A DNA stretch of 64,000 nt from positions 8,253-72,252 of the forward strand of contig JAGWLG010000015.1 in the NCBI GenBank assembly GCA_028864975.1. The letters are read 5' to 3'. The notes under the pieces were generated by a model that saw only the letters and a program-made list of their open reading frames with translations, ran no database searches and was not told the DNA's origin. Of this stretch, positions 24,158 to 40,682 are shown piece after piece; the stretch's first letter is position 1; every line of letters begins with the position of its first letter. The position numbers and the translations under genes were made by a program. The DNA is from Thermoplasmata archaeon. GTDB lineage: Archaea > Thermoplasmatota > Thermoplasmata > Lutacidiplasmatales > UBA184.

Positions 24158-24580
24158 CTATGCGAGCGCGATGTCGAGCCGGTCGAGCAACGCCCGGACG
24201 TGCTCCGGACCGATCGGTTTCCGCAGGTAGGCCTCCACCCGAAGCCCCTGAGCATTGAGCTCCTCGAGCTCGGGAAGCGAGCCGGTCAGGACCACGACGG
24301 GCAGACTCGAGGTCTTCGGGCGCGAGCGGATCTCCCCCAGGAAGTCGACGCCCGACATGCCGGGCAGGTGCAGGTCAAGGAACACGATATCGGGCAGGTT
24401 GTCTTCAGAGGAGGTGCTCCAGCGCTGCAGCAGCTCCAGAGCGGCCTCGCCCGAGGTCGCGGTCATACTGGAGACGTCCAGCCCGGACCGCTGGAACACC
24501 TCCTGCATGTAGCGAGCGTCTCCGGGGTTGTCCTCGACGAGCAGGACGTGGAGCTTCCGGGTCGATCCTAAGGTGGCCAT
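24158..24580 (-). CDS. Stand-alone response regulator receiver (Rcp1-like)
   Basis: LLVEDNPGDA, VFLDLHLPGMSG, VVLTGS, YLRKP. Confidence 0.9.
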   Translation of the reverse strand: MATLGSTRKLHVLLVEDNPGDARYMQEVFQRSGLDVSSMTATSGEAALELLQRWSTSSEDNLPDIVFLDLHLPGMSGVDFLGEIRSRPKTSSLPVVVLTGSLPELEELNAQGLRVEAYLRKPIGPEHVRALLDRLDIALA

Positions 24581-24731
24581 GTGCGACGAGTGACGGGGGC
24601 AAGCCGTCTAAGGAGTCCATGGAGGAGGGGATATAGGGGAGGCCCGTATCCATGCGTATAGCTGACCGCCCGGCGCCGACCCCGGACTCCCGCCTACAAG
24701 CCTGAAATACGGTCGGAGGCTGGAGCCTTCG

Positions 24732-24800
24732 ATGACCATTCCGAGCGGAACAGCCAAGGCTGCGCGCGCGGGCGGTCGGTATTTCTGGTCCTGGTGGTGA
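24732..24800 (+). CDS. Aromatic-amino-acid leader peptide MTIPSGTAKAARAGGRYFWSWW (22 aa), trpL-like
   Basis: ATG 24732 with GGAGG (24715-19) and GGAG (24722-25) upstream; ends TAT TTC TGG TCC TGG TGG TGA; 107 nt upstream of the aro/trp operon. Not in the ORF track (too short). Confidence 0.85.
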   Translation: MTIPSGTAKAARAGGRYFWSWW

Positions 24801-24907
24801 GCGGAGGCGCCGAACCGGCCTCCTCCTCAGCGTCCACCAAGACTTGATGAGCAGGACGGTCCGGTACCTCCCTCGCCTCTCCGGGAACGGAAGGAGAGAA
24901 GGAACGG
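24792..24907 (+). promoter_or_regulatory. Putative attenuator RNA with alternative hairpins and an SD-sequestering stem
   Basis: Helix A (16 bp): 24792-97/24834-39, 24798-801/24826-29, 24803-08/24818-23. Competing helix B (15 bp): 24814-29 with 24848-65. UCCG-GGAA-CGGA hairpin 24880-91, and CUCUCC 24877-82 complementary to GGAGAG 24893-98. No U-tract. Confidence 0.7.
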
Positions 24908-25666
24908 ATGAACGGCAAGGAGCTGCGCCTGCGTCGACTCTTCCCTAGCCCACGGGCCCGACTCTTTGCGGTCCCCTTGGACCACAGCTTGTCGGTCGGA
25001 CCCATCGAGGGGCTCCGCCAGTTGGAGCCTACGGCGCGATCGCTCCAGGAGGGCGGCGTGCGCTGCCTCATCGTTCACAAGGGGGGGGTTCGGACCATCG
25101 CCGCCTCGCTCATGCCCTCCACCCTCTTGGGGGTCCACCTCTCCGCCTCGACCTCCCTGGCCCAGGATACGGGGCGGAAGCGGATCGCAGGGACGGTCGC
25201 GGAAGCGGTCCGACTCGGCGCGGACCTGGTGAGCGTTCAGGTCAACTTTGGGGACCCGGCAGAGGGCGAGATGCTGGAGGACCTCGGGCACATGGCCGAG
25301 GAGTGCGAGGCGCTGGGGATGCCGCTCCTCTGCATGACCTACGTCAGATCGAAGGGCAAGGAGATCGAAGAGGCGGCGCTCGCCCACGCGTGCCGGGCCG
25401 CCGCGGACCTGGGGGCCGACGTCATCAAGACCAACTTCCCGAGCTCCCACGGGTTCCGCAGGCTCGTAGAGAGTACCCCCGTGCCCGTCCTCGTGGGGGG
25501 GGGGCCGAAGCTCGACCGGGAGGAGGACCTCCTCCAACTCGTCCGAGACGCGACCGAAGCGGGTGCGCGAGGCATCTGCATCGGGAGGAACCTGTTCCAA
25601 TCGTCGGACATTGTCGCGACCGCTCGCAAGGTCGCTTCGACGCTCGACGGGGTCGCCAAGGGCTGA
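24908..25666 (+). CDS. aroA': 2-amino-3,7-dideoxy-D-threo-hept-6-ulosonate (ADH) synthase, DhnA-type class I aldolase
   Basis: VPLDHSLSVGP, HKG, HLSAST, A.RLGAD.VS..VNFG, ADLGADVIKT, VLVGGG, IGRNLFQ; first gene before DHQ synthase II. Confidence 0.88.
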   Translation: MNGKELRLRRLFPSPRARLFAVPLDHSLSVGPIEGLRQLEPTARSLQEGGVRCLIVHKGGVRTIAASLMPSTLLGVHLSASTSLAQDTGRKRIAGTVAEAVRLGADLVSVQVNFGDPAEGEMLEDLGHMAEECEALGMPLLCMTYVRSKGKEIEEAALAHACRAAADLGADVIKTNFPSSHGFRRLVESTPVPVLVGGGPKLDREEDLLQLVRDATEAGARGICIGRNLFQSSDIVATARKVASTLDGVAKG

Positions 25667-25677
25667 GGGAGCAACGC

Positions 25678-26712
25678 ATGGACCGACAGAGGATCGTCCT
25701 GGAGCTCGAGGCGGGCGAGGCCGGCGAACGGCTTCGTGGGTACGCCGAACGACGCGGGTTCCACCGGTTCCTCCTTGCGGTCGGCGCAGCGAAGTCCACC
25801 CTGGTCGGACGTGAGGTCGTCCTGCGCAAAGGGACCGCTCTTCGATTCCCCGGTGGGGGAGGGGAAGGCGAGGTGCTCCGGGTGGCCCGCCCTGCGGACC
25901 TCGAAGGGGTGCTTCGGGCGCTTCAGGCCCGGCCCCTGGTCCTGGTCGAATTCGATCGCGAGCGGGTCATCCCTCTGGAGAATCTCATCGCCATGCGGCA
26001 GACCGCGGGGGAACACGCTCCGGGGGCCCTTTGGGTCCGCGCCCAACGTGCCGAGGAAGTGCCGGGCCTCCTAGGTGCCCTGGAGCATGGTTCGGACGGA
26101 GCGGTCGTGGCCGTCTCGGTGACGGAAGAGATCGACCGGCTCGAGGCCCACATCGATCGCCCCCGACTCGAGCTCTCCTGGAAGATCGCCCAGGTCGCAC
26201 GCGTGACGCCCGGGGGGATCGGGGAGCGCGTGGTGGTCGACACGACCAGTCTGCTTGCCGAGGACGAGGGGATGCTCGTGGGGAGCCAGGGTGCGTTCCT
26301 CCTCCTGGTGGCTTCCGAGGCGCAAGGGTCGCGCTACACGAGACCCCGACCGTTCCGCGTCAACGCGGGAGCGGTGCACTCCTACACGCTGCTCGCCGAT
26401 GGAACGACCCGCTACCTTAGCGAACTGGAGGCCGGGGACCGCGTGGTCGTGGCCCGGCCCCGAGGAGACGCGAGGAGCGTCCGCGTCGGTCGGCTCAAGA
26501 TCGAGCGTCGCCCCTTCACCCTGGTCGAGGTCAAGGTGGGCGCCCGTCGCTACACCCTCTTCCTCCAGGAGGCGGAGACGGTGCGCCTGACCACGCCCAA
26601 GGGTCCCAAGCCCGTCCCGGAGCTCTCGATACGCGACCGCTTGCTGGGGGTCGAACTTCCCGCCGCACGCCACTTTGGCATGGCCGTGCACGAGACGATC
26701 CTGGAGCGCTAG
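25678..26712 (+). CDS. aroB': 3-dehydroquinate synthase II
   Basis: VIPLENLIA, LEHGSDG, G.GERVVVDT, EGMLVGS, RPFRVNAGAVHSY, TRYLSEL, VGRLKIERRP, LQEAETVRL, RHFGM...E.I.E; ATG 25678 with GAGG upstream. Confidence 0.93.
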   Translation: MDRQRIVLELEAGEAGERLRGYAERRGFHRFLLAVGAAKSTLVGREVVLRKGTALRFPGGGGEGEVLRVARPADLEGVLRALQARPLVLVEFDRERVIPLENLIAMRQTAGEHAPGALWVRAQRAEEVPGLLGALEHGSDGAVVAVSVTEEIDRLEAHIDRPRLELSWKIAQVARVTPGGIGERVVVDTTSLLAEDEGMLVGSQGAFLLLVASEAQGSRYTRPRPFRVNAGAVHSYTLLADGTTRYLSELEAGDRVVVARPRGDARSVRVGRLKIERRPFTLVEVKVGARRYTLFLQEAETVRLTTPKGPKPVPELSIRDRLLGVELPAARHFGMAVHETILER

Positions 26713-26715
26713 GAG

Positions 26716-28308
26716 ATGGGAGCGCGGGACCACGCGATCGACCCCGAGGTCCTCGCCCCCCGGCCCGGACATCCGCTCCTCGTGGCGACCCTCCCTGGCC
26801 GGAAGGCGGAGGACCTTCGAACCGAAGTGCAGCAAGCTGCCGAGGCTGGCGCCGACCTGGTCGAGTTCCGCCTGGATCGGTTGTCGCGGGGAGAGGTGGG
26901 GAGGCTCGAGAGGGTGCATGAGCTGCCGCTCCTGCACCCTTGGGTCCCCGCGATCGCCACGCTGCGCTCGAAGGCCGAAGGGGGAGAAGGCCCGGACGAC
27001 CTCCCCTCGCGCCGTAAGCTCGTCCTGGAGGCCCTCGACTCGCTTCCGTTCAGTTTCGTCGACCTCGAGGTCGCGCGCGATCTGCCGATGCGGGAGGAGC
27101 TCCGGAGCGCGGAAGGCCGCCGGCTCGGGGTCGTGGGCTCGGCCCACCTGCCCGCCGGGACCCCTACGGAGAAGGCGGTCCGGACCCTTCGTGCGGCGAT
27201 GCAGGGGAACGAGGTGGCCAAGGTCGTTCTCCCGGCTCCCGCGGGCCAGGTGGTCCGAGAGATCCTCCCGGCCCTGGAAAGTTTCCGAGGCTCTCCCTAT
27301 GTTTGTCACACGACCGGGGGTGCCGGGTCGCTGCTCCGTGTCCTCGCGCCACGCCTCGGGATGGCCTGGGTCTACTGCCGCCTACCGGGCGACCGCGGGG
27401 TGGCGGAGGTCGAACGCTCTCAGGTCCCCCTCGATCGGATGCGGCGCTTCATCAACTCCGGTCCGGAGGCCCCCTGGATGGCGGTCGTCGGGAACCCTAT
27501 CGGCCACACTCTCTCCCCCGACCTTCAGGCCTCCTTCCTGAAAGCGACCCATACCGAGGGCATCTACGTCGCGCTCGAGCTCACGTCCGAGGAGGAGTTC
27601 ATGACCGTCCTCCCGGCCCTCCGACGCTACGGGCTGCGGGGGGTGAACGCGACCCGTCCGTTCAAGCGGGCCGCGTATCAGCTAGCCAAGGTCCGTAGCG
27701 AACACGCCAGCGCTAGCGCGGCGGTGAACACGCTCGTCGCGGACCCTGCCGATCCTACGGGGTTCCGTGGGCACAACACGGACGTCTCCGCCCTGCTTCG
27801 CTGGTGGGGAGAGCTCGAGAAGGCGGGGACCCCGCTGGACCGGGTCCTGGTGGTGGGGACCGGGGGGGCCGCGCGCGCGGCGGTGCTCGCGAGCGTCCTT
27901 CACGGAGCCCAGGTCTTCGTCCTGGGCCGCCGCCCCGAGCGGGTCCAGGAGCTGGTCCATGACTTCCCTCCCGAGACGGTGCACGCGATCCCGCCGGGGT
28001 CCCTGCGAGAGTTCCCGCTCGTCGTCCACGCCACCCCCGTGGGCCAGGAGGGGGAGGAAGGGGGGGTCCTCGAGGTCCCCCTACAACGTGCTCTCGGAAG
28101 CGGAAGCCTCTTGGTCGACCTCGTGTACCGCCCTCGAGCGTCCACCGTGCAAGACCTGGTGAAGGCCCCTGGCGCCCGCTACGTCGACGGGATGCGGATG
28201 CTCGTTTACCAGGCTGCCGAAACCTTCCGTCTTTTCACCGGGACCCAGGTCCCCGACCGTCTGGTCGAGGAGTGGGTAGCCCCCGCTGCCGAGGGGGTGG
28301 CGGCATGA
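26716..28308 (+). CDS. aroDE: Bifunctional type I 3-dehydroquinate dehydratase / shikimate dehydrogenase
   Basis: N-terminal half: ADLVEFRLD, GSAH, VAKVV (Schiff-base Lys). C-terminal half: GNPIGHTLSP, NATRPFK, AVNT, GHNTD, GTGGAARA, DLVY, GMRMLVYQA. Confidence 0.9.
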   Translation: MGARDHAIDPEVLAPRPGHPLLVATLPGRKAEDLRTEVQQAAEAGADLVEFRLDRLSRGEVGRLERVHELPLLHPWVPAIATLRSKAEGGEGPDDLPSRRKLVLEALDSLPFSFVDLEVARDLPMREELRSAEGRRLGVVGSAHLPAGTPTEKAVRTLRAAMQGNEVAKVVLPAPAGQVVREILPALESFRGSPYVCHTTGGAGSLLRVLAPRLGMAWVYCRLPGDRGVAEVERSQVPLDRMRRFINSGPEAPWMAVVGNPIGHTLSPDLQASFLKATHTEGIYVALELTSEEEFMTVLPALRRYGLRGVNATRPFKRAAYQLAKVRSEHASASAAVNTLVADPADPTGFRGHNTDVSALLRWWGELEKAGTPLDRVLVVGTGGAARAAVLASVLHGAQVFVLGRRPERVQELVHDFPPETVHAIPPGSLREFPLVVHATPVGQEGEEGGVLEVPLQRALGSGSLLVDLVYRPRASTVQDLVKAPGARYVDGMRMLVYQAAETFRLFTGTQVPDRLVEEWVAPAAEGVAA

Positions 28309-29201
28309 GCGCCGCAGGTCCGGTGACGATGGGGCCGACGCTTCGTGACGGCGCCTGGGGCGCCATCTCCTTCCTGAACGCGATCCCCCAGGGGATCGGC
28401 TGTGCCGCCGCGATCTCCCTTCCCGTCACGGTCGAGGTCCAGTACGTCCCGGCTCCGCCGCAGAGCAAGCCCTGGCTCGACACCACCGAGGGGGAGGCGA
28501 CCCCGCTCCTGCGCTGGACCCTGGACAAGGTCTACGAGAGCGTTCCCGTCCCTCCCATCTACAAGTTCCATGTGGCGGTGAGGTCGGGGGTTCCCCCCCA
28601 AAAGGGCCTCAAGAGCTCCTCGGCGGTCTCCGTCGCCCTCGCGCGGGCGCTGCGTCGGGTCCTAGGCCAGAGCCCGACCCCTGCGGAAGTCGCCACGCTC
28701 TCCGCCAAGGCGGCCCTGGCGGCGGGGGTCTCGGTCACCGGCGCCTTCGACGACGCGCTCGCGTGCGCCATGGGCGGCGTGGTGGTCGCTGACGTCCGGG
28801 CGCACTGGCAGATGCTCTCCACCGAGGTCCCTTCGGGACTTCAGGCCCTCCTCTGGATACCGGAGACCACCCGCCCCGACCTTGCGAAGCGGAGCTCCGA
28901 GCTGAGGGCGCCCGACATGAACGCCAAGGAGGCGGTCCGCCTCGCGCTCCGGGGCGACTATCTCAAGGCGATGAAGTACAACTCGCTCGTCGTGGAGCGG
29001 GCGTTGGGTTACGATTACGCCAAGTTACGCGAGGCCGGGCTCACCAAGGGAGCGCTGTCGGCCGGGGTCACCGGGAACGGTCCGGCGGTGGCCTTCGTCT
29101 GCCCCCGGGAGCTGACCCCGCAGGTGGCCTCCGCCCTACCATGGCAGGGCGCGAAGCTGCTCACGGCGGAGTTCGTGCGCCCCGGGGTGGTGCCCGCGTG
29201 A
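28305..29201 (+). CDS. aroK: Archaeal shikimate kinase (GHMP family)
   Basis: GAISFLNAIP.GIG.A, P..KGLKSSSA, GVSVTGAFDDA, GVTGNGPA; ATGA overlap. Confidence 0.92.
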   Translation: MSAAGPVTMGPTLRDGAWGAISFLNAIPQGIGCAAAISLPVTVEVQYVPAPPQSKPWLDTTEGEATPLLRWTLDKVYESVPVPPIYKFHVAVRSGVPPQKGLKSSSAVSVALARALRRVLGQSPTPAEVATLSAKAALAAGVSVTGAFDDALACAMGGVVVADVRAHWQMLSTEVPSGLQALLWIPETTRPDLAKRSSELRAPDMNAKEAVRLALRGDYLKAMKYNSLVVERALGYDYAKLREAGLTKGALSAGVTGNGPAVAFVCPRELTPQVASALPWQGAKLLTAEFVRPGVVPA

Positions 29202-30652
29202 TGGTGCCTGCCGAACGTCAACGACCCGCAAGGACCGCCACTTCGCCGGACCCCGAAGCGGCTCTTCTCAGGTTGAATGAGGGTGCGGGCCTGCCGCCGC
29301 TTCCAGGACGGGTCGTGGTCACCCCGGGCACCGCCCGCGGGACGCTGACCGCTCCACCTTCCAAGAGCTACACCCACCGCGCGCTCGTCGTCGCCGCGCT
29401 CGCCGAGGGACCCACGAGGGTGATCGGGGGGCTCCGGAGCGAGGACACGCTGGCCAGCCTTCGGGCGGTCATCAGGTTGGGTGGGCAGCTGCGGGCAGCC
29501 CCCCCTGAGGCGCCTCCGGGAGGGGAAAGCGTCCTTCCTCCGCTCGCGCTCGACCCTCTCCCCCTGGGCCCGAGTCATGGAGGGGTGGCGGAGATCGACA
29601 CCGCCGAGTCCGGGACCACCCTGCGGCTCTTTAGCGCCGTCGCCGCGCTCCTCCCTCGTACCTCCCGCTTCTCCGGGAGTCCTTCTCTCGCCCGGCGCCC
29701 TCTGGGTGGGCTCCTCCAAGCCCTTGCTTGTCTGGGGGCCAGCTTCGATGGCCCTCCTCCAGGTCGGTCCCTACCCTTCTCGGTCCGCGGGCCGCTCCAC
29801 GGGGGGAGCGTCTCGGTCTCCGGGAGCGAAAGTAGCCAGTTCACTTCCGCGCTGCTCATCGCGCTCCCTTGCCTTGCGGAGGGCTCCGAGCTCCAGGTCG
29901 CAGGTGCGAGGGTGAGCCTTCCGTACGTGGAGGCAACGCTCGAGGTCCTGCGACAGCAAGGAGTGCACATCGAGAGCGCGCCCTCCAACCGCTACGTCAT
30001 CCCGGGCGGTCAGCGCTACCGGGGAGGCCACCTCACGGTCACGGGCGACGCCTCCTCCGCCGCGTACTTCCTCGCCTTGGGCGCCATCCAAGGTGGGCCC
30101 ATCACGGTCAAAGGGGTTGACCTGCACGTCCCGCAGGCCGACCTGGCCCTGCTCCCTGTGCTCGAACGTGCAGGGGCACGCGTCCGTCGCGGCGAACGGG
30201 AGCTCACCGTGGAGCGCCGCGGGGGAAGGCTCTCGCCCTTCGAGGTCGACCTGACGGCCTCGCCCGATCTTGCCCCCCTTCTGGCCGTCGTGGCCGCCTT
30301 CGCCCAGGGGCGATCAAAGCTGCTCGGGGCTTCCCATCTCGAGGCCAAGGAGAGCGACCGTCGACAGGGCTCCTTGAGGCTGGCCCAGGCGCTGGGCGCG
30401 AGCGCACGAGCGACCGAGGAAGGTATCGAGGTCGAGGGCCCCGTTCAGGTGTGCTCGCTGGACCTGAGGGACCTCTCGGACCACCGGATGTTCATGAGCG
30501 CCGCGGTCGCCGCTGCCGCCCTCAAGGAGCCCTCGACGCTCGAAGACCCCCGGGTGGTGCGCAAGTCCTACCCGGGTTTCCTGGAGGACCTGGGGAGCCT
30601 GGGGATACAGGTCGAAGGCGCTCGGGGGGGAGCTCCTGGGAGGTCGACATGA
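29201..30652 (+). CDS. aroA: EPSP synthase (3-phosphoshikimate 1-carboxyvinyltransferase)
   Basis: PPSKSYTHR, ESGTTLR, SSQFTSALL, GDASSA.YF, PDL.P, KESDR, DHRM, KSYPGF. Start is ATG 29201 or GTG 29198. Confidence 0.95.
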   Translation: MVPAERQRPARTATSPDPEAALLRLNEGAGLPPLPGRVVVTPGTARGTLTAPPSKSYTHRALVVAALAEGPTRVIGGLRSEDTLASLRAVIRLGGQLRAAPPEAPPGGESVLPPLALDPLPLGPSHGGVAEIDTAESGTTLRLFSAVAALLPRTSRFSGSPSLARRPLGGLLQALACLGASFDGPPPGRSLPFSVRGPLHGGSVSVSGSESSQFTSALLIALPCLAEGSELQVAGARVSLPYVEATLEVLRQQGVHIESAPSNRYVIPGGQRYRGGHLTVTGDASSAAYFLALGAIQGGPITVKGVDLHVPQADLALLPVLERAGARVRRGERELTVERRGGRLSPFEVDLTASPDLAPLLAVVAAFAQGRSKLLGASHLEAKESDRRQGSLRLAQALGASARATEEGIEVEGPVQVCSLDLRDLSDHRMFMSAAVAAAALKEPSTLEDPRVVRKSYPGFLEDLGSLGIQVEGARGGAPGRST

Positions 30653-31737
30653 GGATGGCGATCGGGGAAGCGCTCCGTCTCACCCTCTTTGGCTCAAGCC
30701 ACGGTCCCGTCGTGGGTGCCGTGCTCGAGGGTCTCCCCGCGGGGACCCCTGTCGACCTTGAGGCGGTCCAGCGCGAGCTGGACCGTAGGCGCCCCATCGG
30801 TCGCGCGCTCGCGACCAAGCGGCGGGAAGAGGACCAGCTCCGAGTGGAATCCGGGCTCGTCAACGGACGCACCACGGGAGACCCGCTCGTCGGGGTGGTC
30901 GAGAACCGGGACGTCCGGCGAGGGCCATACCGAGAGCTCGAGGACGTCCCTCGACCCGGGCATGCGGACTTCCCCGCGAGGATGCGATACGGCGAGGCCT
31001 TCGACCTTTCCGGAGGGGGGATCTTCTCCGGCCGGATGACCGTGGGGCTGGTCTTTGGAGGGGCGGTCGCCCGAGGCCTCCTCTCCCCTCAGGGGATCGA
31101 TGTGCTCGCCTTCACCCGCTCCTTGGGAGGGGTCGACGCCTCGGCGGCCTCGCTCGAGCGACGGCTCCCTGAGCTTCGTGCCGACGTGCTGTCGCACGAG
31201 GTGGGGTGCCCGGACCTGTCCGCGTCCAAGCGGATGTCGGAGGCGATCGAGCGCGCACGGAAGGACGGCGACAGCGTCGGGGGTGTCATCGAGGTGCGGG
31301 CTGAGGGGCTGCCCGTCGGGGTGGGCGAGCCGTTCTTCGACTCGGTCGAGAGCACCCTCGCCCATGCGCTCTTCTCGGTCCCGGCGGTCAAGGGGGTCGA
31401 GTTCGGCGCGGGATTCACGGCCGCAAGGATGCGCGGGAGCGAGCACAACGACCCGTTCTTCGTGGAGGACGGACGGGTCCGTAGCCGCACCAACCACGCC
31501 GGAGGCATCCTGGGGGGGCTCACCACGGGAATGCCCCTGGTGGCGCGGGTCGTGGTCAAGCCCACCTCCTCGATCGCCAAGGAGCAGGAGTCCGTCTCGC
31601 TGAGCACGAAGTCCTCACGTAGGCTTGTGGTCAAGGGGCGGCACGACCCATGTATCGTCCCGCGTGCGGTCCCCGTGGTGGAGAACCTCACCGCGTTCGT
31701 GCTGGCGGACCTGATGGCCCGCGGGGGGTTCCTGTGA
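30649..31737 (+). CDS. aroC: Chorismate synthase
   Basis: FG.SHG, PRPGHAD, DSVGG, SVPAVKGVEFG, NHAGGILGG, KPTSSI, GRHDPC. Confidence 0.96.
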   Translation: MRMAIGEALRLTLFGSSHGPVVGAVLEGLPAGTPVDLEAVQRELDRRRPIGRALATKRREEDQLRVESGLVNGRTTGDPLVGVVENRDVRRGPYRELEDVPRPGHADFPARMRYGEAFDLSGGGIFSGRMTVGLVFGGAVARGLLSPQGIDVLAFTRSLGGVDASAASLERRLPELRADVLSHEVGCPDLSASKRMSEAIERARKDGDSVGGVIEVRAEGLPVGVGEPFFDSVESTLAHALFSVPAVKGVEFGAGFTAARMRGSEHNDPFFVEDGRVRSRTNHAGGILGGLTTGMPLVARVVVKPTSSIAKEQESVSLSTKSSRRLVVKGRHDPCIVPRAVPVVENLTAFVLADLMARGGFL

Positions 31738-32822
31738 GCGAAGCGCGCCGGAGGACGGTGCTCCTGGGCGCGAGCGGCTGGATCGGGCAGCACTTCGCGC
31801 GGTTGTTGGACGACCATCCGTACTTCGACTCCCCGATCCTGACCGGGGCGACGAGCGCGGGGAAGAGCCTGGGCGAGCTCTGGCAGCTGGCGGACCAGCC
31901 CGTGCCCCAGGGGCTCGCAGAATCGAAGATCGAGAGGTTGACCCCTGCGGAGATCGCGCGGAGGGGGGTCGAGGTCGCCTTCAGCGCCCTTCCTTCGGGG
32001 GAGGCCGGAGCCTTCGAGGCCGAGCTCGCCCGCCGGGGGGTCGCCGTCTTCTCCAACGCTTCCGCGCATCGGATGGACCCCCAGGTCCCCTTGGTCATCC
32101 CCGAGATCAACGGGGACCATCTCGACGCCATCGAACGGCAGCCGTGGGAAGGCAGCATCGTCACGAACTCGAACTGTTCTACGGCAGGCCTCGTGCTGGC
32201 CCTCGCTCCCCTGGTGCCCTTGCTCCGGCCCAAGGAGGTCTTCGTGGCGACCTACCAGGCCCTCTCCGGGGCAGGCTACCCTGGGGTCCCCTCCCTGTCG
32301 ATCGAGGACAACGTCCTTCCGTTCATCGCGGAGGAGGAGGAGAAGATGGAGCGTGAGACCGCGAAGATCCTGGGGGGCTTTCGGGGCGGACGTTTCCGTC
32401 CCCTCTCGCTTCCCGTGAGCGCGCACTGCGCTCGCGTAGGCTCCCGGGAGGGCCACCTCGAGGCCGTGACCCTCAAGGCCGGGACCCCTGCCAAGGCCTC
32501 GGAGATCGTTCGGGCTTGGGAGGACTTCCAACCCCTCTCCCCTCGAGCGCGTGGCGACCGTGAAACGCTCCCGACCGCCCCTGATCACCCCGTGGTCTAC
32601 CGGCGGGAGGTGGACCGTCCTCAGCCCATCCGCGACCGTTGGGCCGGGACCCCCGCGCGCGCACGGGGCATGGCCGTGAGCGTCGGCCGCCTCCGGGTCG
32701 ACCGTGAGCATGTCCGGTTCTTCACGCTCTCGCACAACGCGGTCCGAGGGGGAGCTGGTGGGAGCGTGCTCAATGCCGAGCTCGCCCTTCGGAAGGGGCT
32801 TCTCGGAGGGCGACGGAGATGA
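31734..32822 (+). CDS. asd: Aspartate-semialdehyde dehydrogenase (archaeal type)
   Basis: LGASGWIGQ, FSALP, SNASAHRM...PLVIPEIN, TNSNCST (catalytic Cys), YQALSGAG, EEEKME.ET.KIL, GHLE, HNAVRGGAG; GTGA overlap. Confidence 0.95.
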   Translation: MSEARRRTVLLGASGWIGQHFARLLDDHPYFDSPILTGATSAGKSLGELWQLADQPVPQGLAESKIERLTPAEIARRGVEVAFSALPSGEAGAFEAELARRGVAVFSNASAHRMDPQVPLVIPEINGDHLDAIERQPWEGSIVTNSNCSTAGLVLALAPLVPLLRPKEVFVATYQALSGAGYPGVPSLSIEDNVLPFIAEEEEKMERETAKILGGFRGGRFRPLSLPVSAHCARVGSREGHLEAVTLKAGTPAKASEIVRAWEDFQPLSPRARGDRETLPTAPDHPVVYRREVDRPQPIRDRWAGTPARARGMAVSVGRLRVDREHVRFFTLSHNAVRGGAGGSVLNAELALRKGLLGGRRR

Positions 32823-34204
32823 CCACGGAAGCGCTTTGCGTCGTCAAGTACGGAGGGGCCGCCCTCGGTTCGGAGGAGAGCCTCCGGGACGTGATCCGTG
32901 AACTGCGAGCTCGCAAAGGCCCCATCGTAACGGTCGTTTCCGCACGGGAAGGGGTCACGGACCTGCTCAAGGCGGCGACCGCCGACCCCGCGAGCCGCGC
33001 TCGGCACGAAGAGGTCCTTCGCAAGCTCACCGCGCTCCATGCGGGGGGACCCCGAGAGGTTACGCTCGCGCTGCGCGCGCTCGAACGGCAGCTCACCCGT
33101 CTGCGGAGCGCGATGCGTCAGCTGCCTCCCAGGGCCCGCCGCTACCCCTCCACCCGCGCGCCGGTCGTCCTTTCGGACGCTATCCTCGCGCAGGGAGAGC
33201 GCCTGGCGGCGCATTGGTTCGCCGACCGTCTCCGACATGGGCGGGTAGCGGCACGGGCCTTGGAAGCGGACCTGATCGGGCTCTCGACGGACGACCACCA
33301 CGGCGAGGCGATCGTCCTGCTCGACCGGTCGGAGCTCCCGGTCCGCCGCGCCGTGACGCCCCTGCTGAGGCGGGGCCAGGTGCCGGTGGTCACCGGGTTC
33401 CTGGGCCGATCTCCCTCCGGGAAGGTCGCGACGCTCGGCCGAGGAGGGTCGGACTACTCGGCGACGTGCCTCGGGTACCTTCTCGGGGCCTCCCGCGTGG
33501 AGCTGGTCAAGAAGGACGTCTCGATCCTTACAGCGGACCCCCGCATCGTCCCGGCCGCCCGGCCTCTCTCGCGCCTCTCCTACGAGGAGGCGGAGGAGCT
33601 GGCGCAGTTTGGCGCCAAGGTCCTCCACCCGCTCACCGTCGAGCCCGCCCGCGCGCGTGGCGTCGAGGTCGTGATCCGCTCCCTCGAGGACCCGACCAGG
33701 ACCACGACCATCGGACCCGCCCTTCCGGGGGAAGGCATCCGGGCCTTGACGCTCCTTTCGCCCACGGCGATGCTCCTGCTCCGCGTTCCGGGGGGGCGCC
33801 AGCGGAGGGGGGTGATCGCCGAGGTGAGCCGCACGCTCGCCGCGGCGGAGGTGAACGTCATCACGATGTTCACCTCCTCGGCCCTCCTGATCGTGCTCGT
33901 TGAGATGGCCTCGGGCCGCAAGGCCCGCAGGGCCTTGGACCCGTTCGCTCGGGGGGACGGGGCCTCGCTGGAAGGGCCGCTGGAGGCCGCCCTGGTGACC
34001 GCGATCGGGGAGGGGGTGCTCGCGGACCTCGGAGGGCTTCCGGGGGACGTGGCCTCCCGGGCGCTCGGGGTCTCGGCGACCTCCCGGACCCTCTCCTTCG
34101 CCGTGCCCATGGCCTCGGGTCGCGAATCGCTCGTGAGCCTCCACCGTGCCCTGGTCGAGCTTCCCCGAGCGGTCACGCTCGAGGGCACCGTCCGGGGCAC
34201 CTGA
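32819..34204 (+). CDS. ask: Aspartate kinase with C-terminal ACT-like region
   Basis: VVKYGG, VVSA..GVTD, GER, VPVVTGF, TLGRGGSDYSA, ADPRIVP, SYEEA.ELA.FGAKVLHP. Confidence 0.93.
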   Translation: MTTEALCVVKYGGAALGSEESLRDVIRELRARKGPIVTVVSAREGVTDLLKAATADPASRARHEEVLRKLTALHAGGPREVTLALRALERQLTRLRSAMRQLPPRARRYPSTRAPVVLSDAILAQGERLAAHWFADRLRHGRVAARALEADLIGLSTDDHHGEAIVLLDRSELPVRRAVTPLLRRGQVPVVTGFLGRSPSGKVATLGRGGSDYSATCLGYLLGASRVELVKKDVSILTADPRIVPAARPLSRLSYEEAEELAQFGAKVLHPLTVEPARARGVEVVIRSLEDPTRTTTIGPALPGEGIRALTLLSPTAMLLLRVPGGRQRRGVIAEVSRTLAAAEVNVITMFTSSALLIVLVEMASGRKARRALDPFARGDGASLEGPLEAALVTAIGEGVLADLGGLPGDVASRALGVSATSRTLSFAVPMASGRESLVSLHRALVELPRAVTLEGTVRGT

Positions 34205-34219
34205 AAGGGGGAGCATGCG

Positions 34220-35506
34220 ATGCCGGCACCCACCCCCCGAGCCGGCCCCCACCGCGACCCGTGGTGGAACTTCGTTCGTCGGAGCGCGGAGGACCCCGCG
34301 AGCGCCTTCTACTTCGAGCGGGGGGCCTCCCCCGGTCGGAGCGGACGCTACTCGTTCTTCGGGTTCGGCCCGTCCGAGCGAGAGGAATGGTCCGAACCTC
34401 GGGACGTGTCGGCCTCGCGCCTCCGCGTCCGGGGGAACGACCCACATCGCGCGGACGGAAGCTGGGTCGGGTTCGTCGGGTTCGACGCCGTAGGGCTTTT
34501 CGAACCTCTGCTCGGGCCCTCGACCCCCCGAGGCTCACCCTTCCCGGTCGCCCTGTTCGACCGGTACCCGCATGTCGAGCACGCCCACCATCTTGGGGCC
34601 CCCGAAAGGGGGGCCGCGCCCGGTCTTCCCCCGAGCCCCGAAGTTGGTGAGGTCGAGGACTCCACAACGCGCGACCGCTTCGAGCGCTCGGTGGAGCATC
34701 TCCGCGAGGCGATCTACGACGGCGAGGCCTTCCAGGTCGTCCTCGCGCACCGGCGGTCCCGGCGCTTCAGGGGGAGCCTGCTCCCGGTGGTCGACCGCCT
34801 GCGTCGCGAGGAGCACTTCGCCTTCCTGTACTATCTCCGCATCGTGGACGGGACCTCGGCAGGAGGAACGCCCATCGAGATCGCGGGGGCGTCGCCCGAG
34901 TCCGTAGTCGAGATCCGGGACGGGACGGTCGCGGTCAACCCGATCGCCGGGACCCGCCCCCTCCCCGCCCCCACGCGGGGACCCGCGGCCCGCCTTCCGT
35001 TGGACAAGGACCCCAAGGAGCTCGCGGAGCACCGGATGCTCGTCGATCTCGCCCGCAACGATATCGGACGGGTCTCCCAGGTGGGGAGCGTCCACCTCTC
35101 TCGACGTGAGACCCGCGTGCCTTACGCACGTCTGGAGCACCTCGTCAGCCGGGTCGTCGGCCGTCTGAGCAACGGCGCGAGCGCGATCGACGCGCTGGTC
35201 GCGACCTTCCCGGCGGGGACGGTGAGCGGGGCGCCCAAGATCCGTGCCACCGAGCTTTTGCGCAGGGAGGAGCGGTCCTGGCGCGGGACGTACGGGGGGA
35301 CGGTCGGGATCGTGACCCCCGGCGGGGAGGCCGATTTCGCGCTCGCGATCCGCTCGGCCGCCGCGGCCCGGGGCCGGGTCTACACGCAGGCCGGAGCGGG
35401 GATCGTCCACCTCTCGAAACCCGCCCAGGAATGGGAGGAGACCCTCGCCAAGCTGGCGACCGTCGAGCGGGCCCTCGAGGGAAAGATACGGAGGGTCCGG
35501 CGTTGA
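34220..35506 (+). CDS. trpE: Anthranilate synthase component I (N-terminally compact)
   Basis: GEAFQVVL, GASPE, PIAGTRP, KELAEHRMLVDLARND, HLVS, FPAGTVSGAPKIRA, YGG.VG, QAGAGIV..S.P..E..ET..K; trp operon context. Confidence 0.92.
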   Translation: MPAPTPRAGPHRDPWWNFVRRSAEDPASAFYFERGASPGRSGRYSFFGFGPSEREEWSEPRDVSASRLRVRGNDPHRADGSWVGFVGFDAVGLFEPLLGPSTPRGSPFPVALFDRYPHVEHAHHLGAPERGAAPGLPPSPEVGEVEDSTTRDRFERSVEHLREAIYDGEAFQVVLAHRRSRRFRGSLLPVVDRLRREEHFAFLYYLRIVDGTSAGGTPIEIAGASPESVVEIRDGTVAVNPIAGTRPLPAPTRGPAARLPLDKDPKELAEHRMLVDLARNDIGRVSQVGSVHLSRRETRVPYARLEHLVSRVVGRLSNGASAIDALVATFPAGTVSGAPKIRATELLRREERSWRGTYGGTVGIVTPGGEADFALAIRSAAAARGRVYTQAGAGIVHLSKPAQEWEETLAKLATVERALEGKIRRVRR

Positions 35507-36090
35507 AGCTCGTGCTCATCGACCATCAGGATTCCTTCGTCTACAACCTCGCCCAGGCCCTCGGTCGGCTTGGGGCCGAGGTCGTCACGCTGCGCTCGAG
35601 CCTTCCGCTGCGAGCGGTCCTGCGCGAGGACCCGGACCTCCTCGTCCTCTCCCCGGGGCCGGGCCATCCTTCGGACCCCCGAACGATGGGAGTGACCCCT
35701 CGACTGCTTTCCCGGGGAGGGCTGGCGCGCGAGCTCCCCACGCTGGGGGTCTGTCTGGGACACCAGGCGATCGGTGCGGCGTTCGGAGGGACGGTGCACC
35801 GAGGCCCCTACCCCTGCCACGGAGAGACCTCGCGGGTCCTGCATCACCGAGAAGGGCTCTACGAAGGGGTCCCCAGCCCCTTCTCGGCGGCCCGGTACCA
35901 CTCTCTGGTCGTGGACCGCCACGACCTCCCCGCCGAGCTCGAGGAAACGAGCTGGGAGGCGGGTGGAGTACTGATGGGCCTGCGCCACCGGACGCTTCCC
36001 ATCGAGGGCGTTCAGTTCCACCCCGAGTCCTATCTTACGCGGTACGGCGATAGGCTCCTCGGGAACTTCCTGAAGAGGGCCCGCCGATGA
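35503..36090 (+). CDS. trpG: Anthranilate synthase component II (glutamine amidotransferase)
   Basis: LIDHQDSFVYNL, LSPGPG.P, LGVCLGHQ, RYHSL, GVQFHPES; TTG start overlapping the trpE stop. Confidence 0.95.
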   Translation: MKLVLIDHQDSFVYNLAQALGRLGAEVVTLRSSLPLRAVLREDPDLLVLSPGPGHPSDPRTMGVTPRLLSRGGLARELPTLGVCLGHQAIGAAFGGTVHRGPYPCHGETSRVLHHREGLYEGVPSPFSAARYHSLVVDRHDLPAELEETSWEAGGVLMGLRHRTLPIEGVQFHPESYLTRYGDRLLGNFLKRARR

Positions 36091-37160
36091 ACGTGGATCC
36101 CTCGACAGGACCCGCGGCCTTGCAGCACCTGGTCCAGGGGGAGGACCTCGGACCTGAGGAGGCCCGAGAGGTCGCCGAGGGTCTGTTGACGGGGGCCTTC
36201 CCCCCGGAGGTCGTGGCGTCCCTCCTCACGGCCCTGGCTGCGAAAGGAGAGAGCCCGGAGGAGCTCTACGCCTTCTCCTCGACCCTGCGGGCGCGAGCTC
36301 GACCCTTCCCGGGACCCGCGGAGGCCGGGGCCGTGGACCTGTGCGGGACGGGGGGGGCGAAGACGCCGACGTTCAACATCTCGACGGTCAGCGCCTTCGT
36401 CCTCGCGGGGGCGGGCGTCCCGGTCGCCAAACATGGGAACGTCTCCGCCCGAAGGCCGTGCGGGTCCTCGGACGTACTGAGCGCCCTAGGGCTTCCGGTC
36501 CTTCGCTCCGTGGCCTTCGCCGAGGCCTCCTGGAGGAAGGAACGGCTCTGCTTCCTCCATGCTCCGCTCTTCCATGCCGCGACCCGGAGCGTGGCGCCGG
36601 TCCGCAAGGCGCTTGGGCTCCGGACCATCTTCAATCAGCTGGGGCCTCTCACGAACCCTGCAGGGGTCTCGACGCAGCTCGTAGGGTGTTTCTCGAGGGA
36701 GTATGCCCGGCGGGTCACCCCCGTGCTCCACCGGTTGGGCGTGCACCGGTCCCTCGCGGTCCACGGGAAGGGAGGGATGGACGAGCTCAGCTCCAAGGGG
36801 ACGGACTGGCTCCTCCGATCGGTCGAAGCGAGCGGTGAGGGCGGGGGCGCGACCGAGGTCTCGATCGACCCTTCCACGCTCCTGTCGCCCGAGGAGCGCC
36901 GTGGCGACCTTCGTCCCCGGTCGCCTGGGGAGGCGGCCGAGCTCACGCGGGCGGTCCTCTCGGGAGAAGGGGACGGAGCGGTCCGCGGGGCCGTCCTGCT
37001 GACCGCAGGGGCCGCGATATGGCTTCACGGCTCCGCCCCCGAGCTGCCGAGTGGCGTGGCGTTGGCGAGGTCGGCCCTTCAGGACGGCCGGGCGCTCGAC
37101 AAGCTCCAGAAGCTCCAAGCGCTCGCCCGCTCCCAGGACTGGCCGGAGGGGTCCCCTTGA
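36087..37160 (+). CDS. trpD: Anthranilate phosphoribosyltransferase
   Basis: DLCGTGG, TFNIST, VAKHGN, GSSDVL, RTIFN.LGPLTNP, GMDEL. Confidence 0.96.
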   Translation: MNVDPSTGPAALQHLVQGEDLGPEEAREVAEGLLTGAFPPEVVASLLTALAAKGESPEELYAFSSTLRARARPFPGPAEAGAVDLCGTGGAKTPTFNISTVSAFVLAGAGVPVAKHGNVSARRPCGSSDVLSALGLPVLRSVAFAEASWRKERLCFLHAPLFHAATRSVAPVRKALGLRTIFNQLGPLTNPAGVSTQLVGCFSREYARRVTPVLHRLGVHRSLAVHGKGGMDELSSKGTDWLLRSVEASGEGGGATEVSIDPSTLLSPEERRGDLRPRSPGEAAELTRAVLSGEGDGAVRGAVLLTAGAAIWLHGSAPELPSGVALARSALQDGRALDKLQKLQALARSQDWPEGSP

Positions 37161-38035
37161 GCCCACGGTCTCCCACGAACCCGGCACGGGCCGACGCGAA
37201 GTCCGCTCCAGGGAACTTCCTGGACACCATGGTGAAGACGGTGGAGGAGGAACTGCGCGCGGGGCTCTACGCACGGCGCCCACCCCGAGGGGACGAGCCC
37301 CCGCCGGGACGTCCCCGGTTCGCGGAGGCCCTTCATCGGGTCTCGGAGGGGCCGGCCTTGATGGTGGAGCTCAAGCATGCCTCCCCCGGGCGCTCGCAGC
37401 CGCGGCTTCCTGCGCTCTCTCCGGAGCGTTTCGTTCGGGTGTGCGAGGACGCGGGGATCAGCGCGCTCTCGGTGATCCCTCAGCCCTACGAGTTCGGAGG
37501 CAACCTGGAGGAGTTCGGGAAGGTCGCCCACCTATCCCGTCTGCCGCTCCTTTTCAAGGACTTCATCATCGATGAGGCCCAGATCCAGGCCGCGAAAGTG
37601 CACGGAGCTTCGGCGGTCCTGCTCCTCGCCCGGCTCGCGCGCGCCCAGTCCCTGCACGGCAACCTGGAAGGGCTGGTGAAGGCGGCCCATGCTCGAGGGC
37701 TGGAGACCCTGGTGGAAGTGCATGCGAAGGCCGAGGTACCCCTAGCGCTCAGCTCCGGGACGGACGCCCTTGGGGTCAACGCCCGAGACCTCGGAACGCT
37801 CCACCTGGACCCTCGCTCCGCGCTGCCGGTGCTGCGCGAGCTGCGCAAGGACCCCCGGCCGCTCGTGGCCATGAGCGGCGTGGAAGGACCGCGCGAGGTG
37901 GCCCTCTACGGCGCCTCGGGGGCCGACGCGATCCTCATCGGGACGGCCTTCGCGCGTTCCCACGACCCGCTCGCGTTCCTGCGGGGCCTGCGTGCGGAGC
38001 CCCCCCGCAACGAGGCCGCGGTGGGGGACCGTTGA
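37157..38035 (+). CDS. trpC: Indole-3-glycerol phosphate synthase
   Basis: ELKHASP, LSV, KDFII...QI..A...GA.AVLL, LVEVH, GVNARDL, GADAILIG; TTG 37157 overlaps the trpD stop. Confidence 0.92.
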   Translation: MSPRSPTNPARADAKSAPGNFLDTMVKTVEEELRAGLYARRPPRGDEPPPGRPRFAEALHRVSEGPALMVELKHASPGRSQPRLPALSPERFVRVCEDAGISALSVIPQPYEFGGNLEEFGKVAHLSRLPLLFKDFIIDEAQIQAAKVHGASAVLLLARLARAQSLHGNLEGLVKAAHARGLETLVEVHAKAEVPLALSSGTDALGVNARDLGTLHLDPRSALPVLRELRKDPRPLVAMSGVEGPREVALYGASGADAILIGTAFARSHDPLAFLRGLRAEPPRNEAAVGDR

Positions 38036-38715
38036 CCCGATCGCAGGACCGACCGCTGGTGAAGGTCTGTGGTCTCCGGACCTCACGAGACCTCGAGGCC
38101 GCGGAAGGAGCGGACCTCATTGGGGTCGTGGTGGAGGTGCCGGGGTCTCCCCGATCGGTATCGCTCAGAGAAGCGGAGGCCCTCTTCGAGCTCGCCCGAG
38201 GACGCTTCGATCGCGTGGCCGTCATGTGGGGCCCAGATGCAACTCGGATCCGGGAGGTCCTTCGTGTAGCGGCCCCCGACCTCGTACAGGTGCACGGACC
38301 AGTCCCGACGGGGTTGAAGGAGGAAGAAGTGGGCAAGGTGGTCCCCTCCCTAGCGGTCCCGCAGGCCACCCCTCGGGACGCCCCTGCACCGGTGAAGGTG
38401 CCCGATGAGGGGGGGTACCCCTTCCTCCATCTGGACACCGCGGGAGGACCGCTACCTGGGGGGACGGGACAGCGTTCCGATTGGTCCCTTTGCAGAGATC
38501 TCGTGGTCTCGCACCCTACGCAACGGTTTCTTCTGGGCGGTGGTCTCACACCTGAGAACGTGGCGGAAGCGATCGAGCGGGTCCAGCCGCATGGCGTCGA
38601 CGTCTCGAGCGGGGTCGAGGAGCGACCCGGGGTGAAGTCCCGCGAGAAGGTCGAGCGATTCCTTCGGGCCTCCCTTTCGGCCACGAAGCGTGGTAGGAGC
38701 GCGCGCGATGCCTGA
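38032..38715 (+). CDS. trpF: Phosphoribosylanthranilate isomerase
   Basis: VKVCGL, VQVHG, LDT....GGTG...[22 protein letters not shown]. Confidence 0.95.
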
Positions 38716-39877
38716 GTGGTACGGCCCCTTCGGAGGTACGTTCGTTCCGGAGACCCTCGTCCCCGCGCTGCAGGAGCTTGAGTCCGCCTGGCGCTCGGCG
38801 AGGAAGGACCCGGCCTTCAAGAGGGAGTTCCAGCGCCTGGCACGGGAGTGGGGAGGACGGCCGACCCCCCTCTACTTTGCCGAGAACCTGACCCGGGAGG
38901 TCGGTGGCGCGCAGATCTACCTCAAACGAGAGGACCTCGTCCACGGTGGAGCGCACAAGTTCAACAACGCCTTGGGGCAGGGGCTGCTGGCGAAGCGCCT
39001 CGGGAAGACCCGACTGATCGCCGAAACGGGCGCGGGACAGCACGGCGTCGCCACGGCCATGGTCGGAGCCAAGCTCGCGCTCCGGACCGAGGTGTACATG
39101 GGGGCCGTCGACATGGAACGCCAGAAGCCCAACGTCCAGCGCATGCGGCTCCTGGGCGCCACGGTTCGGCCCGTCGACCACGGGGGGAAGACGCTCAAGG
39201 AAGCGATCAACGAGGCGTTCCGGGATTGGATCACGAACGTCCAGTCCACCTACTACCTGCTCGGGAGCGCGGTGGGTCCTCATCCGTTCCCTTCGATCGT
39301 GTGCGAGTTCCAGTCCGTGATCGGACGGGAGATCTTGCAGCAGGCGCGAAGCGCGTGGAAGGCGCTACCGGACCTGGTCGTCGCCTGCGTGGGCGGAGGC
39401 TCCAACGCCATCGGGACCTTCCACCCGCTGCTCAAGACCCCGGCGAAGCTTCTCGGGGTGGAGGCGGCGGGTTCGGGAGCCCCCCAAGCGGTCGGGTCCG
39501 CCTCCCTCACCAAGGGGCGGCCGGGGGTCCTGCAAGGGATGCGGACCTACCTGCTCCAGGACGCGGAAGGCCAGATCCTGGAGACCGATTCCATCGCCGC
39601 GGGTCTCGACTACGCCGGCGTGGGGCCGGAGCACGCGTACCTGAAAGAGACGGGCCGGGTGGAGTACACGTCGGCGACCGACACGCAGGCGCTCGAGGCG
39701 TTCCATCGCCTGGCGAGGACGGAGGGCATCCTTCCGGCCCTCGAGCCTTCTCATGCCCTTGCCGAAGCGATCCGACGCGCCGCGACCATGCCGAAAGAGG
39801 CACGTATCGTGGTGACCCTCTCGGGGAGGGGCGACAAGGATCTGGAGGTGGTCGGCCAGCATGCCTCACCTGGGTGA
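38708..39877 (+). CDS. trpB: Tryptophan synthase beta chain (TrpB1)
   Basis: [26 protein letters not shown] (PLP Lys), [49 protein letters not shown]. Confidence 0.97.
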
Positions 39878-40682
39878 GGTCCTAGCGTCCCGCCGGGCCG
39901 AGAGGACGCCCTCGCTCTTGGTCTACATGATGGCGGGGTCGGTCCCGGACGAGCGTTTCCTCGCCACCGTCGACGCGCTCAAGGGCGTCGGGGTCACGGG
40001 TCTCGAGCTAGGTTTCCCCTTCAGCGACCCCATGGCCGAAGGTCCGGTGATCCAGAAGGCGGCCTCCGATGCTCTCGCTCGTGGTTTCCACTGGCCGGAC
40101 CTGCTCCGTCTGCTTCGTTCCTGCTCGGAGAAGCTCCCGTGTGCGGTCATGACCTACACGAACCCTATCGTCCAGCGAGGAGAGCTCTCCGCGCTGCAGG
40201 ACCTCGCGAGCGCCGGAGGGAGCGCGCTGATCCTTCCGGACCTCCCCGTCGAGGCGCTGGCTCCCTTCCGAAGGGCCCGCCAGACCACACGCGTGGACAC
40301 GGTCCTGCTAGCGTCGCCGGCGACTCAGGCAGAAAGATTGCGGACCCTTGTCGTTCGGACCGAGGGGTTCCTCTACCTGGTCTCCCGCTACGGCACCACG
40401 GGCGCAGGGGGAGGGAACACTCCCTCGACCCAGGGTCGGGAGGGGGAGCTCCGCCCGCTCCTCGATGCGTCCCACGCCCTACGCCCGAAGCTCCCCGTTC
40501 TCGTCGGGTTCGGGGTCTCCACTCCCGAAGATGTCCGTCGACACCTCTCGGCGGGGGCCGACGGCGTTGTCGTGGGAAGCGCGGTCCAGCGGCGTTTGAG
40601 CGAAGGAGAGAGCCCGCAGGGCATCGCGGGATATGTGAGAGGCCTCTGCGATGGGCTCACATCCAAGGGCCCGTCCGCCTGA
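39861..40682 (+). CDS. trpA: Tryptophan synthase alpha chain
   Basis: [53 protein letters not shown]. Confidence 0.95.

Follow-up and report, generated by a model that had tools for sequence, protein, structure and literature searches.

A predicted tryptophan-sensing leader ORF on a putatively leaderless mRNA upstream of the aro/trp operon in a family of Thermoplasmata archaea

What is a 22-codon open reading frame (ORF) that ends in a cluster of aromatic codons doing in front of a 15-gene operon for chorismate and tryptophan biosynthesis in an archaeon? The question is raised by a stretch of 64,000 nt from a Thermoplasmata archaeon (contig JAGWLG010000015.1, positions 8,253 to 72,252), which is referred to below as the window and in which all positions are numbered from its first nucleotide. 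Leader-peptide attenuation is a textbook bacterial mechanism that depends on coupled transcription and translation, and the archaeal Trp control known to us proceeds via DNA-binding repressors. Comparison of the leader region across related genomes indicates that the ORF is, with good probability, a translated Trp-sensing leader that controls the operon. A more specific model, suggested by RNA folding, places this leader on a leaderless mRNA and lets it work as a ribosome-mediated attenuator of translation initiation rather than through an intrinsic terminator; in our judgement, the model has about an even chance of being correct.

The ORF extends from 24732 to 24800 on the plus strand, as do the other features of the element and the operon described here, and comprises 22 codons plus TGA. 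It encodes MTIPSGTAKAARAGGRYFWSWW from the ATG at 24732, its stop codon occupies 24798–24800, and its mRNA is probably leaderless. No aromatic residue is encoded by codons 1–16, and five of the final six codons are aromatic: Tyr17 (TAT at 24780), Phe18 (TTC), Trp19 (TGG), Trp21 and Trp22, with Ser20 between them. A 107-nt spacer separates the leader stop from the ATG at 24908 of the 252-codon ADH synthase gene, and the whole element, from the TATA box to the ADH synthase start, measures about 205 nt. The proposed target of the leader is the operon at 24908–40682, with the gene order ADH synthase, DHQ synthase II, an aroD-aroE fusion, aroK (archaeal GHMP-type shikimate kinase), aroA, aroC, asd, ask (aspartate kinase), trpE, G, D, C, F, B and A; ADH synthase through trpE were identified with NCBIfam, and trpG to trpA come next. 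The position, sequence and aromatic end of the ORF, its distance from the first of the 15 genes, and the identities of these chorismate and Trp genes were thus confirmed as given in a preliminary description of the locus. The sequencing runs that contain this stretch are DNA only, from mine-drainage and soil metagenomes, with no RNA run among them.

In this genome alone, the leader could be a product of chance, because 2,757 short ORFs with at least two Trp residues inside a six-residue window occur in it, and a 22-codon open frame is unremarkable at its GC content of 67%. ADH synthase orthologues were therefore collected from 40 relatives and from 80 public Thermoplasmata contigs of metagenome-assembled genomes (MAGs), one of which is labelled Candidatus Lutacidiplasma silvani, and their upstream regions were inspected. 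The tallies below include three unpublished genomes (G044, the source of locus L146, G062 and G074), and no claim depends on those alone.

A short ORF ending in Trp-x-Trp-TGA was found 91–115 nt upstream of the ADH synthase ATG in 61 distinct sequences, so that the ORF and its Trp codons, on whose presence in orthologous upstream regions the preliminary description had made its idea depend, were indeed found there. The leader is 23 codons long in 47 of the 61 and 18–24 codons long in the remainder, and 60 of them begin with ATG and one with GTG. Codon x, between the two Trp codons, is free to vary (CTC, TCC, GCC, GCT, CCC and GTC, with GGT and TTC seen at additional loci). What is kept are the start codon, the length, the W-x-W motif and the TGA; the first 18–20 leader residues are essentially unconserved, and a functional micropeptide was rejected on this ground. 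In addition, a covariance model was built on the Trp-x-Trp-stop stretch and the adjoining hairpin. Of the 151 genomes of the family, about 100 gave a strong match to it (E ≤ 4e-12), mostly a single one, whereas the 135 genomes searched from 28 further families of the class gave none at E ≤ 1e-4. All 32 fetched matches with enough flanking sequence carried an in-frame ORF of 19–24 codons located 98–109 nt before ADH synthase. Because of this conservation, in 61 distinct sequences and about two-thirds of the family genomes, a chance ORF can be ruled out.

The amino acid most likely to be sensed was deduced from the C-terminal ends of the leaders. Three genomes of the same genus end in GPWW or GSWWW, and all other genera end in W-x-W, where x is L, S, A, V, P, G or F. 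Of the regulatory codons of the window (Tyr17, Phe18, Trp19, Ser20, Trp21 and Trp22; 24780–24797), only the Trp codons are kept in relatives, and the Tyr17-Phe18 pair occurs in this genome only. The element thus appears to be a sensor of Trp and not, as had been suggested, of Trp, Phe and Tyr together. Situated upstream of the Trp codons, these two additional codons could stall a ribosome with the same outcome, although they are unconserved.

The distribution of the leader points in the same direction. Among the 40 relatives, 15 carry the leader before ADH synthase, and in 14 of these trpE follows at a distance of 9–10 kb, with contig and strand unchanged; in the remaining one (G013), ADH synthase and trpE lie on separate contigs. 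In genus g3, ADH synthase has no leader, and trpE is found on a contig other than that of ADH synthase. One genome of this genus (G010), in which the trp genes stand apart from the aro operon, carries instead a 23-codon ORF of the W-G-W type, MAAGPCHVSYDARPAMSSCAWGW, directly before trpE (locus L119, contig C4; about 183 to 111 nt upstream, with a 111-nt spacer). This ORF shares both the TATA spacing and the hairpin after the stop codon, and it is matched by the covariance model too. In genus g5 (G007, G012, G017 and G022; loci L016 and L021–L023), whose genomes are 87–97% complete, neither trpE (at E ≤ 1e-40) nor the leader was detected. This pattern of presence and absence relative to the position of trpE indicates that the leader follows the trp genes rather than the shikimate genes. 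Conservation and linkage to trp therefore support the part of the preliminary description that saw a translated leader before an archaeal aro/trp superoperon, with Trp codons that signal Trp supply to it, whereas the part concerning Tyr and Phe was not borne out. The g5 genomes retain an ADH synthase operon, in which ADH synthase immediately follows the upstream gene, and they may be tryptophan auxotrophs.

A TATA-like hexamer, GAAATA (24704–24709), ends 22 nt before the leader ATG and forms a conserved column in the family, with TAAATA in most relatives. The distance from the end of the hexamer to the leader ATG is 21–25 nt in all 61 leaders, whatever the length of the ORF. Because this spacing equals the genome-wide peak before the start codons of long ORFs in this genome, the transcript probably starts at the ATG; from promoter geometry, we infer that a start at or beside the leader ATG, i.e., a leaderless mRNA, is the most likely arrangement. 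GGAGG (24716–24720) and GGAG (24723–24726) precede the leader ATG and had been taken for a Shine-Dalgarno (SD) sequence of its own. The motifs are present, but because the predicted transcript start is the leader ATG itself, they probably lie 5' of the transcript. SD-like tetramers were found before the leader ATG in only 26 of the 61 sequences (background, 0.20 per scanned window), versus 55 of 61 before the ADH synthase ATG.

Several features of the family argue that the leader is read by ribosomes. The length variants of 18, 19, 21, 22 and 24 codons, which occur in several lineages, all differ from 23 codons by whole codons, and no frame-broken copy was found among the loci that hold the element. 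Since an RNA fold alone needs no steps of three, this restriction of length variation to the frame suggests that the approximately 23 codons are translated. The sole start-codon substitution, from ATG to GTG, still gives a start codon. All but two of the loci without a detected ORF lack the element entirely; the exceptions are a locus with a single Trp codon, still in frame (L054), and one cut by a contig end. Moreover, the stretch of Trp codons has no conserved RNA pairing partner (duplex z = +0.5 versus shuffled sequences), so the invariance of these codons is best read as a coding constraint. Translation of the leader ORF is the interpretation that we favour. In L054, whose ORF lies between about 170 and 100 nt upstream of ADH synthase, GGG replaces the first Trp codon and the peptide ends in Gly-Leu-Trp-stop, the rest being intact and in frame.

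The leader and the spacer are predicted to be highly structured. A hairpin inside the ORF, named P0 (24734–24777), is closed by a helix between 24734–24737 and 24774–24777 and emerges from both the fold and family covariation. Across the family, ORF nucleotides 2–7 pair with nucleotides 55–50; the six positions are 91% paired, compared with 80% when permuted among sequences (maximum of 83% in 1,000 permutations), and A-U, G-C and C-G pairs alternate at three of them. Through P0, the extreme 5' end of the predicted mRNA, with the U and G of its start codon, is paired with the codons that immediately precede the Trp codons; the helix may restrict the access of ribosomes to the leaderless AUG, or it may shield the 5' end.

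The stop codon is immediately followed by segment A (24801–24811), a purine-rich, SD-like stretch with the sequence GCGGAGGCGCC, which reads GGGAGGCGCC in most relatives and starts 2–3 nt after the TGA, at a fixed offset in the family. Segment C (24867–24882; CCTCCCTCGCCTCTCC) is a CU-rich anti-SD strand with two alternative partners, segment A and the SD region. The latter, segment D (24889–24903; GGAAGGAGAGAAGGA), is the purine-rich SD region of ADH synthase, which C would close when A is masked. In the predicted fold of the ribosome-free RNA, a long imperfect helix (24796–24877), in which 24796–24834 pair with 24841–24877, holds C off the SD. Additionally, segment A can form a local hairpin with a GGCGCC/GGCGCC top in most relatives (top 92% paired, G-U variants included).

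Column-wise pair counts left both the A:C pairing and a small hairpin, P2, undecided, and alignment-free duplex energies and masked folds were used for them. The A:C duplex had a mean energy of −26.9 kcal/mol (z = −2.9 versus shuffled sequences), and the pairing of A with its local partner had a mean of −22.3 kcal/mol (z = −1.6); the corresponding ensemble probabilities for the core of A were 0.77 and 0.14. Where the local hairpin of A wins, C pairs with D and the SD closes. The SD was predicted to be locally paired with a probability of 0.76, versus 0.62 with shuffled upstream sequence, and it exceeded this control in 50 of 61 leaders. RNAalifold applied to MAFFT alignments of the whole leader or the spacer returned almost no consensus structure, because the variable parts align poorly. 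Pairing of the Trp codons with the SD region, which occurs in the window's own fold, was considered as a family mechanism and rejected, since it is not conserved (the z of +0.5 given above).

The effect of ribosome position on these pairings was modelled by refolding all 61 leaders (15 in an earlier version) with a ribosome footprint masked from −12 to +13 around the P site, limits that are assumed. The mean unpaired probability of the SD was 0.43 without a ribosome and also 0.43 with the first Trp codon in the A site, and it was 0.30 with the last Trp codon and 0.27 with the stop codon in that position. The SD changed in the proposed direction in 32 of 61 leaders and in the opposite direction in 10; the Wilcoxon p-value for this change overstates the evidence, because the 61 sequences are related. 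In the window, when A was masked by a ribosome at the stop codon, a 13-bp C:D fold (24869–24883 with 24888–24903) replaced the long helix that contains A:C. With the ribosome at Tyr17 or Trp19, A:C persisted, and only a hairpin of 5–6 bp touched the purine tract.

These folds suggest the following relay, whose direction of control is itself a prediction. When Trp-tRNA is plentiful, the ribosome would reach the TGA and cover segment A; segment C would thereby be freed to fold onto D, the SD of ADH synthase, and the operon would be poorly translated. When Trp-tRNA is scarce, the ribosome would pause on the first Trp codon, with about 15 nt still separating it from A. Segment A would then stay paired with C, the SD would be more open, and the aro, asd, ask and trp genes would be made.

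A number of observations weigh against this relay or against the translated leader on which it depends. The stalled state in the window still has a 6-bp hairpin (24877–24882 with 24893–24898) over part of the purine tract. The folds predict no more than a modest change at the SD, and it is reversed in the 10 leaders mentioned above. A ribosome with the last Trp codon in its A site already covers most of A, so that the predicted ON state is reached solely by a stall at the first Trp codon, and the folding model is one of equilibrium, whereas real attenuators act kinetically. By column-wise covariation, A:C is 67% paired and rises to 83% when the partner is slid by one column, and A itself barely varies. 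TGA is the sole stop codon used, and helix P0 accounts for part of the length conservation without translation. Furthermore, three of the four genomes with a separate trpE (genus g3) have no leader before trpE. Finally, all the genomes are MAGs, and the organism of the window is uncultured.

If the leader is translated and senses Trp, its output need not be translation initiation. The ribosome could instead decide whether the CU-rich spacer, about 100 nt long and untranslated, is read through or is exposed to a factor-dependent terminator or nuclease, with polarity of the archaeal aCPSF1/FttA type, so that control would fall on transcription or RNA fate. Whatever speaks for a translated, Trp-specific leader also speaks for this possibility, the exposure of the spacer shifts with A:C pairing, and the predicted effect on the SD is only modest; transcription-translation coupling and factor-dependent termination also exist in archaea. 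However, intrinsic termination of the archaeal type is unlikely, since none of the 61 spacers contains a run of five or more U residues (the longest has four, and most reach two), and no conserved factor-binding motif was identified. A complementary CU strand faces the purine-rich SD before ADH synthase in 55 of 61 sequences, as translational control needs. Within the reading of the element as a translated Trp-sensing leader, we consider the relay to the SD an evenly poised proposition and control exerted on transcription or RNA fate a distinctly weaker, tentative one.

Two further explanations dispense with the peptide. The leader could be a structured non-coding RNA in which the ORF is incidental and the UGG-NNN-UGG-UGA linker is read by tRNA-Trp in a T-box-like manner, by a Trp-activated RNA-binding protein or by Trp itself. 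P0 with its covariation, the GGCGCC hairpin (92% paired) and the A:C helix are what such an RNA would show; the UGG triplets lie in a single-stranded linker, where UGGU would putatively complement the ACCA 3' end of tRNA, and the invariant TGA is not required by the coding model. Yet every length variant keeps its 5'-proximal ATG in frame with the UGG codons and the TGA, the one start-codon change (ATG to GTG) preserves a start, and the codon between the Trp codons varies freely. Two UGG triplets three nucleotides apart cannot both contact one tRNA in T-box fashion, and no Rfam family, T-box included, matched at E ≤ 10 above chance level. This explanation is accordingly improbable, and we give still less credence to one at the DNA level, in which the GGCGCC-N5-GGCGCC inverted repeat after the ORF would be an operator for a dimeric transcription factor with TrpY-like logic and the ORF a by-product. 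The perfect 6-bp palindromic repeat is kept in most family members, as an operator might be, but it lies about 75–95 nt downstream of the predicted start and not over the TATA box, the B recognition element or the start site. In several members, moreover, the arms pair only via G-U (GGTGCC...GGCGCC), which keeps the RNA helix and breaks the DNA palindrome, and an operator leaves the in-frame ATG, the Trp codons and the anti-SD strand unexplained.

How does the predicted Trp-sensing leader relate to systems already described? TrpY of Methanothermobacter is a DNA-binding repressor that acts at the promoter and confers Trp-dependent control on the trp operon. The present element would share with it the Trp-dependent control of archaeal trp genes, and differs in that the ORF, the codons and the RNA helices are conserved downstream of the promoter. 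The T-box riboswitch is built on a stem I specifier loop and a T-box antiterminator, in place of which we find P0, a linker and the segments A, C and D. A scan of 24400–25100 against Rfam at E ≤ 10 gave only three chance-level matches, with no leader family and no T-box among them.

Like the trpL leaders of enterobacteria and of actinobacteria (PMC1262725; Rfam Trp_leader, RF00513), the element combines a short ORF with clustered Trp codons before trp genes and predicted mutually exclusive pairings, and it would share with E. coli trpL the rule that a ribosome at the stop codon means OFF, the output here being predicted to be translational. Unlike trpL, it has no U-tract terminator hairpin, no Rfam match and no detected sequence homology; its Trp codons stand at the extreme C-terminus, right before the stop; its mRNA is predicted to be leaderless and has an archaeal TATA promoter; and 15 genes follow the leader, including those for chorismate synthesis and asd/ask. 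The preliminary description had recognized in the ORF the trpL/pheL architecture of transcription attenuation. This comparison did not hold, as the spacers have no U-run of five or more and folding points to translation initiation. Because both the terminator and the Rfam model fail, the leader was not filed under the trpL family.

Most features of the element are shared with the leaderless polycysteine short ORFs of the mycobacterial Cys 'ribulon', which have been shown experimentally (Canestrari et al., bioRxiv 10.1101/834739). In both cases, a leaderless mRNA (predicted here) from a GC-rich genome opens with a short sensory ORF that carries codons for the end product, and no terminator is present. 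The mycobacterial system is bacterial and senses Cys, whereas the one described here is archaeal, concerns Trp and is predicted from sequence. In addition, the stalled ribosome of the mycobacterial system directly blocks a duplex that sequesters the ribosome-binding site, whereas a relay is needed here, from A, covered at the stop, through C to the SD, with Trp codons that have no conserved partner. A full-text literature search, limited to the library searched, found no published report of leader-peptide attenuation in archaea.

When this genome was scanned for a TATA box followed by a short ORF, the aro/trp leader was recovered together with a single Phe/Tyr-rich candidate, located before pheA, and nothing else; no leader for His, Leu, Thr or Ile/Val was seen. 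The candidate is an 18-codon ORF encoding MARSQRSSTPPAAFFPYF followed by a stop codon, on the minus strand of another contig of the same genome (G000, contig C29; locus L111/L112, L112:~2549–2605). A TATA-like GAAATA lies 26 nt upstream of it, and a hairpin lies 2 nt after its stop codon. The pheA gene downstream (L112:1498–2511) encodes a prephenate dehydratase-chorismate mutase fusion. No close homologue of this enzyme was present in the 40 relatives, and the best database match showed 49% identity over 60% of the query. Together, pheA and its leader form a 1.2-kb insertion between flanks that are syntenic with genomes of the same genus; the contig is therefore genuinely archaeal. This ORF may represent a second leader, one that senses Phe/Tyr and may have arrived by transfer.

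In its widest form, our proposal is one of ribosome-mediated sensing in archaea. A leaderless Trp mini-gene would gate the 15-gene operon through an RNA-pairing relay that distinguishes a stall at Trp from arrival at the stop codon; it would have arisen in one Thermoplasmata family independently of bacterial trpL, and in the present genome it would have been extended by Tyr and Phe codons and, together with the second, Phe/Tyr-rich leader before the inserted pheA gene, would make up a small set of operons co-regulated by stalling on aromatic codons. We regard the case for this proposal as finely balanced. If it is true, archaeal ribosomes can act as metabolite sensors, leaderless mRNAs can carry such switches, and the device can evolve anew without an intrinsic terminator. 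It would also explain how one signal governs a 15-gene operon that leads from aspartate to tryptophan. The small size of the element makes the claim directly testable by mutants of the start codon, the Trp codons and segments A, C and D.

Within the operon, asd and the aspartate kinase gene (31650–34204) sit between aroC and trpE, and the operon therefore supplies its own aspartate semialdehyde for the ADH route. On the other side of the leader, a gene for a stand-alone response-regulator receiver (24158–24580, minus strand) is divergent from the leader promoter, with a gap of 151 nt (24581–24731) between this gene and the leader ATG. At its far end, at 40682, the operon faces a convergent tRNA-splicing endonuclease gene.
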